From UHGV virus genome UHGV-0181186: a stretch of 41,148 nucleotides of DNA. One strand, given 5' to 3'. Both the position numbers and the translations under genes were made by a program. Source of the stretch: a virus. The notes under the pieces were generated by a model, which made no database searches, was not told the DNA's origin, and saw nothing but the letters and a program-made list of their open reading frames with translations. Positions 1,830 to 15,714 of this stretch are shown here, piece after piece (position 1 is the first letter of the stretch; each line of letters begins with the position of its first letter).

Positions 1830-3400
1830 CGTCTCTGTAATAGCCTCTATACAACCCTTTCCCTTCCCTTTCCAGAATCTATCCCACTAATTCGATAGAA
1901 TCTATCCCGTACCTTAAAAGCAATAACTCTATAGTCTACTCTATAACCTCTTATCAAATCAACTTAAATAAAAGCCCATAACCCGAAAGGGAAGGGCAAC
2001 CATTTAAACGCTCTATAAAGCCCTATAACAGCCTTATCAACCTAACTTAAGGGATTGCATTAACCCACTCTAAAAAGCCCTTTATAGAGCTTCCCAGAGC
2101 CTTAGAAGAATCTTATAAGGGTGTAAGCTTTATCATCTCGTTAGTATTCTTGTGAACTACTAAAAAGGGCTTGGTAGTTCCTTTAAAGTATGTTATAGGG
2201 GCTATAAAGTTACTTTGAAGTAGCTTAAAAGTTACGTAAATGCTAGCCCCCTTAACATTTTCTTAACAATTTCTTAACAAACCCTACATAGTTATGCTTG
2301 TTAGAGACTTGTTAGCCCCTTGTTAAATCTCTGTTAAGACCACGTAAAAGCCTTGTAAGAGTCTTTAGCATAGCCTTTAAAGCCTCTGTAAAGCCCTATA
2401 AAGAGCTATCCATACAGTTGAGGGGTAGATACTAGGAAGAGACTTAAAAGAGCTTATAAAGAGCTATAGAGAGCTTTTAAGAGGTATGTTTAGAGAATCA
2501 CTAAGTAAGAGAGGGAACGATAAGGAAGAGTTAGTGACCATGTTAATAGCTTGTTAAAAAGATTAAACACTTGTTAGGAACTTGTTAATTATCCCTACAA
2601 AATAACTCTTTAAAATTAACTTGTTAGCTCTTGTTAGTCATCTGTTAAGATTCTGTAAAGTCTATGTATCAACTGTTAAGAAACTGTTACATCCTTGTTA
2701 GTTCTGTTAAGAATCTGTTAAGACCTTTGGAGAGATGTTAAGAGCTTGTGAGAACTGTTAAGAGATTGTTAAGGATATTTTAAAATTCTGCAAAGGGATG
2801 GTAAGGGAGTTGTTAAGGGTTACCAAGCAGATATACATCCTAATCAGATATTTTTGAGTTCCTTCAAAGACCCTAAAAAATGACTTGATAGTCCTATTTT
2901 ATAAAAATTTTAAAAATCTGAATAATTACCTAGACAGTCTTTTAAAAATACAGGTAGAAACAGGCTTATAAGATACCTTGTTAGTACCGTGTTAGACCTT
3001 GTGAGATAAGGTCTGTGAAGATATTCCTGTTAAGTTTGTTAAAACAGTCTATATAGAGGTTTAGTAATACCTAGTGAACACCTATAGAGGGTAACATAGC
3101 TTACCTAGAGATTAAGAGGTGTATAGAGGCTTCTAAGAGCGTATAGAGAGATGGTTAAGGTGATTGTATAGGTTGTTAAGAAGGCTTGTTAGAAGATTGT
3201 TTATAAGGCTTATTAAAGGGCTAGTTAGAAGGCTTATACAGGGGGCTATTAAGACCACTAGATAGTTACTAAGATACTATATAGTACTATATAACTATAT
3301 AGAGAGTAAGATTAAGGAGGTTGTTAAGAAGGATAGATATTTTGTTCACATATGCTGGTGACCCAGAGGTTGGGACAACCGATAAAATTTTATAAAAATT
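1830..3400. repeat. ORF-free iteron array (TGTTAAG-type and CTATAAAG/TATAGAG-type short repeats)
   Basis: No ORF in any frame across about 1.6 kb; dozens of copies of (C)TTGTTA(A/G)G and (C)TATA(A/G)AG at roughly 10-12 bp spacing; lies between convergent terminators. Confidence 0.7.
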
Positions 3401-7774: not shown

Positions 7775-8181
7775 TAACGAATAACCTGTGAGACTTGAAT
7801 TGCTTCAGTTACTGACAAGTCACCTACTTTCTCTTCTTTGATAAAAGTGAAGGTGAGTTCAACAGGTTCTTGCTCTTCTTGCTCTTCTTGCTCAACTGGA
7901 ACACCATTAAGCTCATCAAAGATTGATTGGGTTGTCCAGTCTTCTCCACCATCTGGATAGTGGATTACGTAGAGAGGGAACTCTGTGTTAAACCAACCAA
8001 ATACAGGGCAGCCATCTTCATCATCTCGCACCCGATGAAGGGTGCTTCCAGACCCTGTAAAACGAAGGAATAAATCTCCGTTGCACTTGAATATTACTGC
8101 GTCGGCAAAACCGATGTCTTCTCGACCATCATGACCAAATGTGTCAACCTTTACTTGAATATCTCTAACATCTTTATTCAT
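7774..8181 (-). CDS. hypothetical protein (acidic EQEEQEEQE tract)
   Basis: 135-aa ORF. Confidence 0.55.
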   Translation of the reverse strand: MNKDVRDIQVKVDTFGHDGREDIGFADAVIFKCNGDLFLRFTGSGSTLHRVRDDEDGCPVFGWFNTEFPLYVIHYPDGGEDWTTQSIFDELNGVPVEQEEQEEQEPVELTFTFIKEEKVGDLSVTEAIQVSQVIR

Positions 8182-11980: not shown

Positions 11981-12019
11981 GTTGACAGACTCTACAAAGT
12001 TGCTCTAAAGTCTGTCACA
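11981..12019 (+). promoter_or_regulatory. promoter-like TTGACA box overlapping a perfect 9-bp inverted repeat (candidate operator)
   Basis: gTTGACAGACTc…(17 nt)…AGTCTGTCAc; the two arms are exact reverse complements; just upstream of the Ro60-like gene. Confidence 0.4.
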
Positions 12020-12050: not shown

Positions 12051-13466
12051 ATGAGCGAATTATTTAAACATGCGCACCTTCATGCAGGTCGAACTGAAAA
12101 TGGTGCTGTAAACCATACTTCATCAATGTCTGCTCTTGTAGACTTTTACAAAGCTGCTGGTTCAAGCCGTAGCAATGTAGAAATCTTACCAGACTTGTTC
12201 TACAAAGCTTTGCGTGAGGATGTTGATGTTGCAGTTCGTATTTTGCTTCATATGCGAGATGTACGAGAAGGTATGGGTGAGCGTAAAGCCTTCAGAACTG
12301 TTTTGCTTCAAGCAATTGAAGATAAAGTTTTAGAGCCTACACAGGTTCTTCGCATTATGGATAAGATTGCAGAACTTGGTCGTTTTGATGACTTCAAAAT
12401 CTTCGTGGGTACTTGTTTCGAGACAGATGCCTTCAAACATTTAGAAGCAGCATTACTAGACCCTGCAACAGCAGGTTTGGCGGCTAAGTGGTTACCACGA
12501 GTCAAACCACGTCATAAGCAGTTTGTAAAACGTTTCTGCAAGTTTGCCAACTTGAGCGAGAAAGAGTACCGCACACTGTTATCTGCACTATCTGATACAG
12601 TTGAGCAAAAAATCTCTGCTAATGAGTTTGGCAAGATTGACTACAGTAAGGTTCCCTCACTTGCTGCTGCACGTTACCAAAAACTGTTTAACCGTAAGGA
12701 TGGAGAACGTTACAAAGCTTACATTGAGTCCTTATCAAAAGGTGAGGCTAAGATTAATGCTGGTGCTGTTTACCCATACGATGTGATTAAATCTGTCAAG
12801 CATGGTAATGCAGATGTTGCTAATGAGCAGTGGAAAGCACTACCAAACTGGATGGCAGAAGGTGAAAACATCTTGTGTATGTCTGATGTATCAAGTTCAA
12901 TGTCTTGGGTGAATTTTGGCTCCATTACTGCTCTGGATATTGGTGTATCACTTGCCTTGTATGTAGCAGAACGCAATACAGGTTGCTTTAAGAATGAGTT
13001 GATGGTTTATTCAACAAACCCTCACTTCATCGAACTGAGTGGTGATTTACGAAACCGTCATCGTCAGGTGATGCGACACGTTGAATATGGCTCAACTAAC
13101 TTACAAGCAGCTTTTGACCGCATTCTTGAGACAGGCAAAAGAAACAACTTGACTCAGAAAGATATGCCAAGTAAGCTTATCATCTTCTCCGATATGGAGT
13201 TTAATCAGGTTGATGGGGCTAACGGTCGTACAAACTTTGAAGCAATTCAGAGTAAGTACAAAAAAGCTGGATATGAGATGCCACAACTGGTATTCTGGTA
13301 CTTAGCAAACCGTAATGGTACTTGCGAAGTATCTGTTAAGGATAACGGTGTAGCAATGGTATCAGGGTTCTCTCCAGCCACTTTAAAAGCTCTGCTTGGT
13401 GGTGAGAAGTTTGACCCAATCAGTGTAATGCTCAAAGCAGTAATGATTGACCGTTATATCTGGTAA
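12051..13466 (+). CDS. Ro60/Rsr-like protein (TROVE-like N-terminal region plus C-terminal vWA domain with MIDAS motif)
   Basis: 471 aa; DxSxS MIDAS motif (CMSDVSSSMS), downstream IIFSDMEFN and …GFSPATL… segments resemble the Ro60 vWA domain by recollection; helical N-terminal region. Confidence 0.6.
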   Translation: MSELFKHAHLHAGRTENGAVNHTSSMSALVDFYKAAGSSRSNVEILPDLFYKALREDVDVAVRILLHMRDVREGMGERKAFRTVLLQAIEDKVLEPTQVLRIMDKIAELGRFDDFKIFVGTCFETDAFKHLEAALLDPATAGLAAKWLPRVKPRHKQFVKRFCKFANLSEKEYRTLLSALSDTVEQKISANEFGKIDYSKVPSLAAARYQKLFNRKDGERYKAYIESLSKGEAKINAGAVYPYDVIKSVKHGNADVANEQWKALPNWMAEGENILCMSDVSSSMSWVNFGSITALDIGVSLALYVAERNTGCFKNELMVYSTNPHFIELSGDLRNRHRQVMRHVEYGSTNLQAAFDRILETGKRNNLTQKDMPSKLIIFSDMEFNQVDGANGRTNFEAIQSKYKKAGYEMPQLVFWYLANRNGTCEVSVKDNGVAMVSGFSPATLKALLGGEKFDPISVMLKAVMIDRYIW

Positions 13467-13484: not shown

Positions 13485-13513
13485 TTGACAATGTGTTTAA
13501 TACCCTTTAATAT
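13485..13513 (+). promoter_or_regulatory. sigma70-type promoter (TTGACA-N17-TAATAT)
   Basis: Consensus -35 with 17-nt spacer and near-consensus -10; preceded by aaaaagggta; about 120 nt upstream of the first tRNA. Confidence 0.65.
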
Positions 13514-13575
13514 GTTCTACATAGAAACGAAATGAGAGCTTTTCTAAGATACTGAAAAATATTTTAAAAAAGTTC

Positions 13576-13604
13576 TTGACAACCACTAAAAAATAATGTT
13601 AAAG
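13576..13604 (+). promoter_or_regulatory. candidate promoter (TTGACA-N17-TTAAAG)
   Basis: aaaagttcTTGACA with weak -10; same upstream motif family. Confidence 0.35.
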
Positions 13605-13631
13605 TGTTTACATAGAGTTTGAAAAGTTTAT

Positions 13632-13708
13632 CTCTGTTTAGCTCAGCTTGGTAGAGCGTTCCGTTTGGGGCGGTAAGGCCGGAGGTTCAAGTCCTCCAAC
13701 AGAGACCA
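13632..13708 (+). tRNA. tRNA-Pro (anticodon TGG)
   Basis: Hand-folded cloverleaf: 7-bp acceptor ctctgtt/aacagag, T-arm ggagg-ttcaagt-cctcc, anticodon loop tttgggg, CCA encoded. Confidence 0.75.
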
Positions 13709-13715
13709 AATTAAT

Positions 13716-13793
13716 GTTCCAGTAGACAAAATGGTAAAGTCACCACTCTTTCAAAGTGGATATCTGAGGGTTCAAATCCCTTCTGGAACGCCA
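13716..13793 (+). tRNA. tRNA-Glu (anticodon TTC)
   Basis: Acceptor gttccag/ctggaac, anticodon arm ccact-ctttcaa-agtgg, T-loop ttcaaat, CCA encoded. Confidence 0.75.
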
Positions 13794-13800
13794 GTTTTGA

Positions 13801-13872
13801 CAGAAGACCAATTACAGCAAACTTAATCTACTCATCTGAAAGTTAATCGGACAAAGAAGATATTTGGTCTGG
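13801..13872 (+). ncRNA. candidate structured RNA repeat element 1 (conserved CAGAAGACC…TTACAGCAA 5' end, GGTCTGG 3' end)
   Basis: 5' and 3' ends can pair (AGACCAA/TTGGTCT) enclosing an AT-rich variable loop; no T-arm; related copies at 13967, 14421 and 14508. Confidence 0.35.
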
Positions 13873-13883
13873 TCATTAAGAAT

Positions 13884-13960
13884 TGCGGGTATAGAGAAAG
13901 GGCGTCTCACATGTCTCATTAGCATGGTATCGGCAGGTTCGACTCCTGCACCCGCCTCCA
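13884..13960 (+). tRNA. tRNA with anticodon CAT (Met or Ile2/lysidine)
   Basis: Anticodon arm catgt-ctcatta-gcatg, T-arm gcagg-ttcgact-cctgc, CCA encoded; position 1:72 appears mismatched. Confidence 0.7.
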
Positions 13961-13966
13961 AATTTA

Positions 13967-14030
13967 CAGAAGACCGTTTACAGCAATATTTATTAAATTT
14001 TTAGCGGAAAAATTGAAAGATACGGTCTGG
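13967..14030 (+). ncRNA. candidate structured RNA repeat element 2
   Basis: cagaagaccgtttacagcaa … acggtctgg; terminal stem AGACCGT/ACGGTCT. Confidence 0.35.
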
Positions 14031-14043
14031 TAATACTAAACAT

Positions 14044-14120
14044 GGTTAGGAAGCACATAAGGTATGTGCGGTCGCCTGTTAAGCGAATGGCACAGGGTTC
14101 GAATCCCTGACTAACCGCCA
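14044..14120 (+). tRNA. tRNA-Asn (anticodon GTT)
   Basis: Acceptor ggttagg/actaacc, D-arm gcac…gtgc, anticodon loop ctgttaa, T-arm caggg-ttcgaat-ccctg, CCA encoded. Confidence 0.75.
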
Positions 14121-14189
14121 AATTTAGGAGAGAAGTGATTGCTCACCGATTTGTAAGGTGCAAGTCCTTAGCCTGAATAGAAATTAAAT

Positions 14190-14277
14190 GTGTCGTTATC
14201 CCGTAGATGGTAGCGGTGGGGACTGTAAATCCCTTGTCATTGAGACTCGGTAGGTTCGACTCCTACACGGCACACCA
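14190..14277 (+). tRNA. tRNA-Tyr (anticodon GTA), long variable arm
   Basis: 88 nt; acceptor gtgtcgt/acggcac, anticodon arm gggga-ctgtaaa-tccct, T-arm gtagg-ttcgact-cctac, CCA encoded. Confidence 0.7.
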
Positions 14278-14282
14278 ATAAA

Positions 14283-14359
14283 GGCTATGTAGTTTAACTG
14301 GAGAAAATACTCCCCTGTCACGGGAGATGATGTGAGTTCAAGTCTCATCGTAGCCGCCA
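14283..14359 (+). tRNA. tRNA-Asp (anticodon GTC)
   Basis: Acceptor ggctatg/cgtagcc, anticodon arm ctccc-ctgtcac-gggag, CCA encoded. Confidence 0.75.
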
Positions 14360-14384
14360 ATTTTGAGAGGGCTGTTTAGCCCAT

Positions 14385-14418
14385 CCCTTAAAGAGTTCTT
14401 ACGAGTATTCTTTAAGGG
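14385..14418 (+). other. 10-bp perfect-stem hairpin (possible terminator or RNA processing site)
   Basis: cccttaaaga…tctttaaggg inverted repeat; a second hairpin gggctgtttagccc lies immediately upstream. Confidence 0.45.
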
Positions 14419-14420
14419 AG

Positions 14421-14497
14421 CAGAAGACCAAATACAGCAAGAATGTATGAAATTTCAAGCCAATTTAATTTTGAAAATTTAAAACTTGGTCTGGCTC
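14421..14497 (+). ncRNA. candidate structured RNA repeat element 3
   Basis: cagaagaccaaatacagcaa … cttggtctgg. Confidence 0.35.
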
Positions 14498-14507
14498 AAC
14501 AAATTTA

Positions 14508-14639
14508 CAGAAGGCCGTTTACAGCAAAACTTAAACAATCTATTTCTCCGGTAAAGAAAAGGCGAAGGTTCGATTCCTTCACTCGGCAGATGTCGAGTTG
14601 GTGTAATGGTAGCACTTAAGATGATAAACAACGGTCTGG
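14508..14639 (+). ncRNA. candidate Y-RNA/YrlA-like RNA with circularly permuted tRNA-like module
   Basis: Order along the strand: conserved 5' motif, T-arm (gaagg-ttcgatt-ccttc), acceptor-like 7-bp hairpin capped by a tetraloop (actcggc-agat-gtcgagt), D-arm-like (gtg-taatggtag-cac), then a 3' strand (aacggtctgg) able to pair with the 5' motif. Confidence 0.4.
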
Positions 14640-14646
14640 TAATTAC

Positions 14647-14778
14647 CTTTGTAGATAAGTTATTAAGCTTACTTGTGAGTATGCGACCACAAAGGGTGAA
14701 TGGGTAAATTCTAGATTTAAACCCAAAAAGGCACATCGCTACAGACCTTAAGCAAGTCTGGGTAGCTTATCTACAAAG
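14647..14778 (+). other. long-range 13-bp perfect inverted repeat enclosing structured sequence
   Basis: ctttgtagataag (14647-14659) and cttatctacaaag (14766-14778) are exact reverse complements; interior contains hairpins cagac…gtctg and gggtaaat…atttaaaccc. Confidence 0.4.
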
Positions 14779-14788
14779 ATAATTTAAT

Positions 14789-14864
14789 GGAAGTGTAGCA
14801 GAATGGTGATGCGGCAGACTTTTAATCTGACAGGCGATGGGTTCGAATCCCTCCACTTCTACCA
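14789..14864 (+). tRNA. tRNA-Lys (anticodon TTT)
   Basis: Acceptor ggaagtg/cacttct, anticodon loop cttttaa, CCA encoded; paralog of the tRNA at 16377; T-stem weak. Confidence 0.65.
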
Positions 14865-14868
14865 ATAT

Positions 14869-14945
14869 GGTTCAGTCGCAGATAAGGTAATGCAAGGGTC
14901 TCATAAGCCCTATGAATGTGGGTTCGATTCCCATCTGAACCTCCA
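14869..14945 (+). tRNA. tRNA with anticodon CAT (second copy; Met or Ile2)
   Basis: Acceptor ggttcag/ctgaacc, anticodon arm agggt-ctcataa-gccct, CCA encoded. Confidence 0.7.
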
Positions 14946-14946
14946 A

Positions 14947-15022
14947 GCTGGTATAGTTAAGAAGGTTATAACACTCCCCTGATAAGGGAACATCGGTGGT
15001 TCGATTCCACCTACCAGTACCA
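14947..15022 (+). tRNA. tRNA-Ile (anticodon GAT)
   Basis: Acceptor gctggta/taccagt, anticodon loop ctgataa, T-arm ggtgg-ttcgatt-ccacc, CCA encoded. Confidence 0.7.
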
Positions 15023-15270: not shown

Positions 15271-15352
15271 CGGGGCGTATCTCAGCGGTCTTCTAAACCG
15301 CCGTTAACCGAGTAAGTGGAGTATGCGGGTTCGAGTCCTGCCGCCTCGACCA
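15271..15352 (+). tRNA. noncanonical tRNA-like gene, anticodon TCT (Arg) with no recognisable D-arm
   Basis: Acceptor cggggcg/cgcctcg plus ACCA, perfect anticodon arm gcggt-cttctaa-accgc, T-arm gcggg-ttcgagt-cctgc; only 7 nt between acceptor and anticodon stem, and a 23-nt variable region. Confidence 0.45.
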
Positions 15353-15366
15353 ATTTTGGAGAAATC

Positions 15367-15714
15367 ATGAAAACTTGTATTAGGTGCAAACTTAGCAAGG
15401 ATGAAAATGATTTCTACATGAAAGATGGTAGGAGAACTCATTCATACTGTAAAAAGTGTGTTAATGAGCAAACCATAGAAAGACAAAGAGCACTTAAACT
15501 CTTAGCTATTGAGTACAAAGGTGGGGTTTGTCATGATTGTGGTAAGAAGTATCATCCAGCAGTGTATGACTTCCATCATTTGAATCCTTCAGATAAAGAT
15601 TTTAACATTGGTCATAGGAAAAGCCTTAAGTTCTCTCAAGAACTAAAAGATGAACTTGACAAATGTGTTTTGCTATGTTCAAATTGCCATAGGGTAAGAC
15701 ATGCAAAATATTAG
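15367..15714 (+). CDS. HNH endonuclease (homing-endonuclease-like)
   Basis: CxxC…CxxC zinc-binding pairs (CIRCKL, CKKC, CHDCGK, CSNCH) and HH…N…H HNH motif; GGAG RBS; the ORF-track 5' extension overlaps a tRNA and was trimmed. Confidence 0.8.
   Translation: MKTCIRCKLSKDENDFYMKDGRRTHSYCKKCVNEQTIERQRALKLLAIEYKGGVCHDCGKKYHPAVYDFHHLNPSDKDFNIGHRKSLKFSQELKDELDKCVLLCSNCHRVRHAKY

Follow-up and report, generated by a model that had tools for sequence, protein, structure and literature searches.

Ro60 and Y RNA particles are conserved from bacteria to humans, and phage RNA partners have been mapped in only a few cases. In the Y RNA YrlA, known from bacteria and mycobacteriophages, a closing stem encloses tRNA-like elements in the order (V)-T-AS-D (Chen et al. 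2014, PMC4201824). YrlA is bound by the Ro60 orthologue in vivo and carries tRNA modifications (TruB, DusA); the RNA of Mycobacterium smegmatis is cleaved by RNase P, followed by CCA addition, and that of Salmonella Typhimurium is uncleaved (PMC4201824). Thermus phage phiLo encodes a Ro60 protein and the RNAs Yrl1 and Yrl2, for which binding to the protein and to the host polynucleotide phosphorylase (PNPase) was shown (PDB 9KOP, 9L5Y; PMC12135203). The pairing of Ro60 with a tRNA-mimicking Y RNA is therefore a known type, phages included. Here we describe an RNA element, module d (14505-14642), in the virus genome UHGV-0181186. The whole stretch of 41,148 nucleotides (nt) is referred to as the window. 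We consider it probable, from sequence comparison, that module d is a YrlA-type Y RNA and a candidate partner of the Ro60-like protein encoded by the open reading frame (ORF) at 12051-13466.

The window is a FelixO1-type myovirus with 99.5% identity to Escherichia phage humlepung over the query; 252 phage records match it. For the Felixounavirus Bas63, a preprint reports that the Ro60-like protein gp130, encoded directly upstream of the tRNA genes, counters the Ppl defence (bioRxiv 10.1101/2024.10.10.617714). The same work conjectures that some of the Bas63 "tRNA genes" are Y RNAs, and names none.

A circularly permuted tRNA

Module d is a complete four-arm tRNA that is circularly permuted, with the chain break between nucleotides 26 and 27. 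Its parts, in the order of the strand, are the following.

14505..14642, + strand: whole tRNA-like module d, closing helices and permuted tRNA domain
14505..14527, + strand: 5' half of the closing element, with UUAC (14505-08), the AGA internal loop, AGGCCGU (14512-18), UUA and CAGCAA (14522-27)
14543..14559, + strand: anticodon-like or 'V' hairpin UUUCU-CCGGUAA-AGAAA, 5 base pairs (bp), 7-nt loop, loop triplet GGU
14564..14580, + strand: T-arm GAAGG-UUCGAUU-CCUUC, with canonical U54, U55, C56, A58 and G53-C61
14581..14598, + strand: closed acceptor-like helix (AS) ACUCGGC-AGAU-GUCGAGU, 7/7 bp, capped by AGAU
14599..14615, + strand: U8-G9 (14599-14600) and D-arm GUGU-AAUGGUA-GCAC (14601-14615), with canonical A14, G18, G19 and A21
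14631..14642, + strand: 3' half of the closing element, ACGGUCU-G-GUAA, with ACGGUCU at 14631-14637 and GUAA at 14639-14642

In the closing element, AGGCCGU pairs with ACGGUCU (7 bp) and the outer UUAC with GUAA (4 bp), with an AGA/G internal loop between the two helices. The four nucleotides AGGC that follow the anticodon-like hairpin stand in the place of the variable region. When the pieces are rejoined in tRNA order, ARAGORN reports a 74-nt tRNA-Thr(ggt). The Rfam tRNA model aligns the anticodon arm, variable loop and T-arm of module d in a partial match (22 bits, E=0.036). As it stands in the genome, neither ARAGORN nor Rfam, at gathering thresholds over the whole window, gives a tRNA at 14505-14642. 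The ARAGORN tmRNA search returned tRNAs alone, and Rfam on 14340-14800 at E≤10 detected neither a tmRNA nor a group I intron; the idea of a permuted intron-exon arrangement was dropped on these grounds.

The original prediction for this region had picked out the T-arm, the acceptor-like helix and the D-arm, all of which are present where it placed them, and had held that the element is not a tRNA gene by standard criteria, in agreement with the lack of a call before re-permutation. It had also proposed that the flanks pair into a long stem in the place of the anticodon stem. The outer pairings AGGCCGU/ACGGUCU and UUAC/GUAA are indeed conserved, while the inner CUUAA/UUAAG pairing occurs in Felixounavirus only and is absent from the RNAalifold consensus. 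The placement itself was mistaken: a separate anticodon-like hairpin at 14543-14559 had been missed, and the closing stem exits between nucleotides 26 and 27.

The fold was assessed in an alignment of the window with seven relatives (8 phages) from the Ounavirinae genera Felixounavirus, Mooglevirus and Suspvirus. The T and D arms are invariant throughout, while the flanks diverge. The AS helix is 100% paired in the 8 phages with three pairs altered on both sides, and occurs in the versions ACUCGGC/GUCGAGU, ACACGU-UACG-GCGUGU and ACCCUUC-GCCAAACA-GAAGGGU. The closing helix is likewise 100% paired and shows two one-sided changes, A-U to G-U and G-C to G-U. All 500 of 500 column shuffles score below the observed covariation, and slid registers drop to 37-53% paired. 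The RNAalifold consensus, built without prior input, recovers the same helices. The covariation check proposed in the original prediction thus came out in its favour, with pairings kept by compensatory change in three genera.

The anticodon-like hairpin is the weakest part of the module. It is 90% paired, and its loop triplet reads GGU, UAU, GAU or AUA. The loop carries a 1-nt deletion in three loci (L008, L011 and L012), and the hairpin is degenerate in phage HP1. Because the helices are maintained by covariation while the anticodon triplet varies and suffers an indel, both decoding and a pseudogene are argued against: a decoding role appears unlikely from these comparisons, and the degenerate pseudogene that the original prediction had set against itself is rejected by the covariation.

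The Ro60-like protein and the stem-CAGCAA signature

The presumed protein partner is encoded upstream of module d.

12051..13466, + strand: gene for the 471-amino-acid Ro60-like protein, with a HEAT-repeat ring and a vWA domain with MIDAS residues

Module d begins 1,039 nt past the stop of this ORF, on the same strand. The sole Pfam matches of the protein at E≤0.01 are DUF7788 (1.7e-43) and DUF2828 (3.9e-30), and a PDB sequence search returned nothing at E≤1. An AlphaFold2 model was obtained from a 35-sequence alignment (pLDDT 86.5). When it was compared with the PDB by Foldseek, 12 of the 12 best matches were full-length Ro60/TROVE structures with probability 1.0 and TM scores of 0.47-0.59. 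The matches include 9kop, 2i91, 1yvp, 9l5y and 2nvo; Xenopus Ro60, Deinococcus radiodurans Rsr and the Ro60 of Thermus phage phiLo are represented. The MIDAS residues D279-x-S281-x-S283, T349 and D381 are invariant in 35 homologues. According to the model, the protein has the Ro60 fold, a HEAT-repeat toroid followed by a vWA domain with MIDAS. Homologues occur in 710 phage records, and some mycobacteriophage copies are annotated as 'Ro-like RNA binding protein'.

The closing element of module d defines a signature in which a 7-bp stem is followed by 3 nt and CAGCAA, and the 3' strand of the stem by G. Besides module d, the tRNA operon contains three further copies.

13798..13875, + strand: short paralogous module a, Glu/Met spacer, UGAC-AGA-AGACCAA-UUA-CAGCAA ... 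UUGGUCU-G-GUCA
13964..14033, + strand: short paralogous module b, Met/Asn spacer, UUAC-AGA-AGACCGU-UUA-CAGCAA ... ACGGUCU-G-GUAA
14418..14497, + strand: short paralogous module c, GAGC-AGA-AGACCAA-AUA-CAGCAA ... UUGGUCU-G-GCUC, with a hairpin insert

Modules a, b and c occupy operon spacers longer than 60 nt and hold short non-tRNA inserts, and their outer 4-bp helix co-varies among the paralogues. Module b keeps its position in the loci of Mooglevirus and Felixounavirus, and the stem of module c is invariant at 7/7 pairs in the 8 phages. We regard the three as YrlB-like companions of module d.

We fetched 80 viral contigs that encode relatives of the Ro60-like protein, 75 of which are distant (~40-48% protein identity). 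From the Ounavirinae sequences we built a covariance model of T+AS+D (R1), which finds non-tRNA modules in many of the distant contigs, with acceptor stems unrelated in sequence; tandem tRNAs produce T-arm/D-arm false positives with this model. Examples are modules in L032 (44.7 bits) and L050 (38.6 bits, starting 20 nt past the gene); scores up to 44.7 bits are thus reached in loci with a protein of only ~40% identity. Nearly all R1 modules are enclosed by a 7-bp stem; CAGCAA (or CCGCAA) begins 2-4 nt past its 5' strand, and G(A/U)UAA comes after its 3' strand.

A strict search for stem-CAGCAA yields 48 modules in 35 of the 75 loci on the gene strand, compared with 1 on the other strand and ~1.8 per shuffle over 20 shuffles. 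A strict parse for T-arm, closed acceptor and D-arm was run over 1.06 Mb of related loci; combined with stem-CAGCAA, it leaves 14 modules on the gene strand, spread over 11 loci, with none on the other strand and none in 20 dinucleotide shuffles. With a relaxed tail, 124 modules are found on the gene strand in 60 of the 75 loci, and 54 of these modules are no more than 300 nt away from the gene. The negative control, a T5 region that includes the whole tRNA cluster (NC_005859 20000-69999), contains no stem-CAGCAA and no closed-acceptor T-AS-D module.

In six loci (L015, L021, L044, L058, L074 and L076) the 3' strand of a module runs straight into the Shine-Dalgarno sequence of the Ro60-like gene, as in the example ...GCAUUCU-GUUAAGGAAAAUUAAAAUG. 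The leader modules at the Shine-Dalgarno are located as follows.

L015, 3266-3380: leader module
L021, 1532-1634: leader module
L044, 7849-7935: leader module
L058, 7907-7943: leader module
L074, 7887-7942: leader module
L076, 7851-7940: leader module
L034, ~7900-7960: leader module

This arrangement suggests autogenous translational control by the Ro60-like protein. The leader copies provide independent support for the motif as the recognition target of the protein. The leader of the window's own Ro60-like gene has no stem-CAGCAA mini-module and contains a promoter and an overlapping inverted repeat only: the predicted sigma-70-like promoter TTGACA-18-TAAAGT at 11982-12017 overlaps GACAGAC...GUCUGUC.

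Directly 3' of the gene for a 34% identical 'Ro-like RNA binding protein', Mycobacterium phage Snenia carries three modules in tandem, a tRNA-like one between two short ones (L088 6463-6722), and in Listeria phage LP-064 three tandem modules lie just 5' of the Ro-like gene (L090 3623-3884). The Snenia locus has a band-7-like protein gene upstream. In LP-064, an RtcB-like ligase gene is found 1.3 kb downstream, and two large non-coding stretches at L090 1960-3030 stand behind strong TTGACA/TATACT-type promoters. In the related Listeria phage CKA15, hyper-abundant unannotated RNAs were described, and the Ro-like protein was detected in purified virions (PMC12282133). We did not use these RNAs as expression evidence for CAGCAA modules, as the non-coding stretches at 1960-3030 may equally well be their counterparts.

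In five modules the capping loop begins with N-CCA, immediately behind the 7-nt 3' strand of the acceptor. This frequency far exceeds the 1/64 expected by chance.

L003 (HP1), ~1000-1030: G-CCA
L036, 1047-1109: G-CCA
L050, 9563-9618: G-CCA
L086, 9843-9901: A-CCA
L086, 12527-12582: C-CCA

The tRNA operon and neighbouring features

Module d is located in a 430-nt gap between tRNA-Asp (14283-14359) and tRNA-Lys (14789-14864). The surrounding cluster comprises 25 tRNAs by ARAGORN and one seen by Rfam alone. We propose the operon order Pro-Glu-Met-Asn-Tyr-Asp-[RNA]-Lys-Met-Ile, in which module d would be co-transcribed with the tRNAs. Two candidate promoters precede it.

13576..13605, + strand: predicted sigma-70-like promoter TTGACA-18-TAAAGT with extended TG, ahead of the first tRNA, by consensus match only
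13485-13513, + strand: second candidate promoter from the consensus scan

The predicted promoter at 13576..13605 is the likely start of the Pro...Ile tRNA/Y-like RNA transcript, judging from the consensus. Co-transcription is suggested because sigma-70-like promoters lie at 13485-13605 and the scan found no terminator-like site on the + strand from 13632 to 15022. The tRNA recognised by Rfam alone is located at 15271-15349 (31.7 bits), where relatives annotate tRNA-Arg(TCT). An ORF at 15316-15714 with a weak HNH endonuclease match (E = 0.0068) overlaps it.

The gap contains further conserved structures. The stretch 14365-14530 is near-invariant over the three genera, exceeding the tRNA-like part in conservation, and within it the segment 14369-14420 contains two hairpins, GGGCUGUUUAGCCC and CCCUUAAAGAGUUCUUACGAGUAUUCUUUAAGGG (z = -3.96). 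A third structured domain is adjacent to module d.

14641..14784, + strand: structured domain closed by CUUUGUAGAUAAG/CUUAUCUACAAAG, between module d and tRNA-Lys, minimum free energy z = -5.17

Its closing 13-bp helix is 100% paired with two double changes, and co-varies in Mooglevirus. A hairpin inside the domain, CAGAC-CUUAAGCAA-GUCUG (14742-14760), has a loop that resembles UUACAGCAA.

Several records carry annotations over module d. Escherichia phage REP6 has a 131-nt 'tRNA-Thr_GGT' over part of it (L001 701-831, corresponding to window ~14460-14590), and others have hypothetical proteins, wV8 gp48 and HP1_22. All three are likely annotation artefacts that arise from the permuted tRNA. 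The minus-strand ORF 14479-14736, a hypothetical protein in some records, is disfavoured by local indels that would break the triplet frame (-2, +4 and -4 nt) and by the stem covariation.

Relation to YrlA, rival explanations and possible function

Module d shares three properties with YrlA (RF02553). A Ro60-type gene is encoded on its strand at a distance of less than ~4 kb. Its elements follow the order of closing stem, optional V hairpin, T-arm, closed AS and D-arm, with the tRNA-invariant nucleotides kept. Several Y-like RNAs are present at the locus, comparable to the YrlA/YrlB pair. It differs from YrlA in several respects: in place of GNCGAA(N0-1)G it has a 7-bp stem and then NNN-CAGCAA, and G(A/U)UAA comes past the 3' strand; the presumed partner belongs to Pfam DUF2828/DUF7788 and not to TROVE; the hairpin before the T-arm has the geometry of an anticodon arm (5 bp, 7-nt loop, 4-nt variable region) rather than of a variable arm; and the module is embedded in a tRNA operon. 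Since the architecture and genomic context are those of YrlA while two defining features fail, we class module d as presumably functioning like YrlA and consider it a distinct variant paired with DUF2828-type Ro60 proteins.

Several observations weigh against this assignment. The Rfam model RF02553 (gathering threshold 69 bits) gives nothing on 14340-14800 even at E≤10, so that the alignment to the YrlA covariance model suggested in the original prediction gave no match there. GNCGAA(N0-1)G is not in the 5' region of module d, which reads UUACAGAAGGCCGUUUACAGCAA, and the Ro60-like protein has no match to Pfam TROVE (PF05731) at E≤0.01. Its orthology to Bas63 gp130 is deduced from position and fold. 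The single-sequence folding z-score of module d (-1.2 to -1.7) is not significant, and the support for the module is therefore cross-sequence comparison, not thermodynamics. Finally, all related loci were picked for carrying the Ro60-like protein; the case for specificity consequently draws on the strand and shuffle controls, on how close the modules lie to the gene, and on T5 as the single negative control.

As a positive control, RF02553 matches the Snenia module at 39.3 bits (E=2e-6), under the 69-bit threshold; the region that the alignment equates with GNCGAA is CACAGGAAAAAC, which lies within the real closing stem. In the window, GGCGAAG at 14561-14567 was considered as the YrlA motif and rejected, being at the V/T junction and reading GGUGAAG, GGAGAAG or AGAGAAG in relatives. 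The idea of a YrlA-like tRNA mimic without a free acceptor end, its ends lying in a stem, is nevertheless supported by the element order, the compensatory changes, the Ro60-fold neighbour and the Snenia equivalent just 3' of the gene.

The resemblance to phiLo consists in a phage-encoded Ro60-fold protein with adjacent phage-encoded Y-like RNAs (two in phiLo), each of the phiLo RNAs being a stem that flanks an internal loop with a short conserved motif. The phiLo RNAs differ in that they contain a CGAA motif and that their description mentions no permuted tRNA. Module d resembles M. smegmatis YrlA in its 7-bp acceptor-like helix; in related phage modules N-CCA adjoins the 3' strand of the acceptor, whereas the window copy has the AGAU loop without CCA.

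One modification of the YrlA-type reading, which refines rather than excludes it, is that RNase P cuts 5' of G14592 in the AGAU loop, with subsequent 3' trimming and CCA addition. The resulting tRNA-like molecule would be in two pieces, kept joined by the acceptor and closing helices, and might be chargeable. A 7-bp acceptor with a T-arm constitutes an RNase P substrate, and in five other lineages the 3' strand of the acceptor runs directly into N-CCA, far more often than the 1/64 of chance. Against this, the window loop has no CCA, Mooglevirus and Suspvirus have just 6 bp under a tight UACG tetraloop cap, and S. Typhimurium YrlA is uncleaved (PMC4201824). As the anticodon-like loop is unconserved, charging would come without a decoding role. 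We judge such a two-piece mimic to be unlikely in the window.

It is also conceivable that module d serves the processing or punctuation of the tRNA operon independently of the Ro60-like protein, its fold recruiting RNase P/RNase E or stabilising the transcript. tRNA-like structures are established processing signals, module d sits in an operon spacer, and short modules fill other spacers of >60 nt. However, stem-CAGCAA modules are not confined to tRNA clusters: in a mycobacteriophage, a Listeria phage and many uncultured phages they directly border the Ro60-like gene on its 5' or 3' side or lie on its Shine-Dalgarno, and the T5 tRNA cluster has none. This makes a purely operon-related role quite improbable.

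Circularly permuted tRNA genes were reportedly found in the red alga Cyanidioschyzon merolae by Soma et al. in 2007. Module d shares with these genes the tRNA 3' half placed before the 5' half, the short intervening sequence that joins the acceptor strands and the paired termini; a bulge-helix-bulge, a conserved anticodon and a splicing endonuclease are missing here. For a genuine permuted tRNA-Thr(GGU) gene, the transcript would have to form a circle at the closing stem and be cut at the acceptor loop to yield a decoding tRNA. The four arms and 4-nt variable region in permuted order, the acceptance of the re-permuted sequence by ARAGORN and the single GenBank record (REP6) with tRNA-Thr_GGT at this place agree with such a gene. 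That record covers 131 nt with a forced intron, though, and the 'anticodon' varies among close relatives (GGU, UAU, GAU, AUA), with a base lost from the loop in L008, L011 and L012 and a degenerate hairpin in HP1. The majority of the distant members lack the anticodon arm wholly. The closing helix is, by inspection, not a bulge-helix-bulge, a group I intron signal is lacking at E≤10, and we know of no circularising pathway in E. coli phage infection. A decoding tRNA-Thr gene is thus hardly credible, and module d is probably never converted to a linear tRNA.

A decayed remnant without function, either a pseudogene or a fusion that joins the 3' half of a tRNA gene to the 5' half of its neighbour, would suit a position among tandem tRNA genes, which do yield R1 T-arm/D-arm false positives. 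It is barely plausible given acceptor strands that pair 7/7 and co-vary, T and D arms that are invariant over three genera with diverging flanks, the recurrence of the architecture in at least 11 distant loci whose stems are unrelated in sequence, and no close parent among the phage's own 25 tRNAs.

Small stable non-tRNA RNAs have precedents among phage tRNA genes. The species 1/2 RNAs of T4 are of this kind. The T5 record NC_005859 annotates RNA1, RNA2 and RNA3 among the tRNA genes as tRNA-like stable RNAs with unknown functions. Like module d, the T5 and T4 RNAs are interspersed in tRNA genes, and they are freed by tRNA processing, as is proposed for module d; T5 differs in having no Ro60-like gene annotated in the 50 kb examined.

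For module d as a Y RNA, we propose a molecule of two halves. The terminal helix (4-bp outer stem, AGA/G loop, 7-bp stem and single-stranded UUA-CAGCAA) would form the putative docking site for the Ro60-like ring protein. The circularly permuted tRNA would present the T-loop/D-loop elbow and the 7-bp acceptor helix with its acceptor end shut by the tetraloop; it would therefore be recognisable by tRNA-binding factors and not chargeable as is. RNase P and the 3' processing enzymes that excise the flanking tRNAs may free module d, with the terminal helix protecting it. The Ro60-like protein would then bind the CAGCAA stem of module d and of its three shorter paralogues, as suggested by their co-occurrence and by the same motif on the protein's own ribosome-binding site in other phages. 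More speculatively, the tRNA-like domain might tether or gate a host factor, much as PNPase is tethered or gated by the Y RNAs of bacteria and of the Thermus phage, and thereby redirect RNA decay or blunt host defence.

The specific Felixounavirus RNAs, the CAGCAA-stem signature over very distant phages and the copies on the gene leader were not found in Rfam 15 or the literature searched, and appear to be new. It is tentatively proposed that stem-NNN-CAGCAA...stem-G(A/U)UAA marks a widespread, undescribed family of phage Y-like RNAs that are specific ligands of DUF2828-type Ro60 proteins, act as autoregulatory operators where they cover the ribosome-binding site, and in their tRNA-shaped copy provide the effector arm of counter-defence (Ppl). 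Felixounaviruses would hold four members of this family within a tRNA operon. If this is true, RNase P cleavage of the tRNA-shaped copy, which encodes CCA in some lineages, could produce a mimic in two pieces.

The permuted tRNA would account for recurring mis-annotations as a "hypothetical protein" or a 131-nt "tRNA-Thr". The conjecture of Y RNAs in Bas63 is now given exact candidate coordinates, with four modules of which one is a complete permuted tRNA. The 7-bp stem with CAGCAA offers a short, mutable motif for the proposed recognition, and the same motif accompanies homologues of the gene in enterobacterial, Vibrio-type, Listeria and mycobacterial phages.

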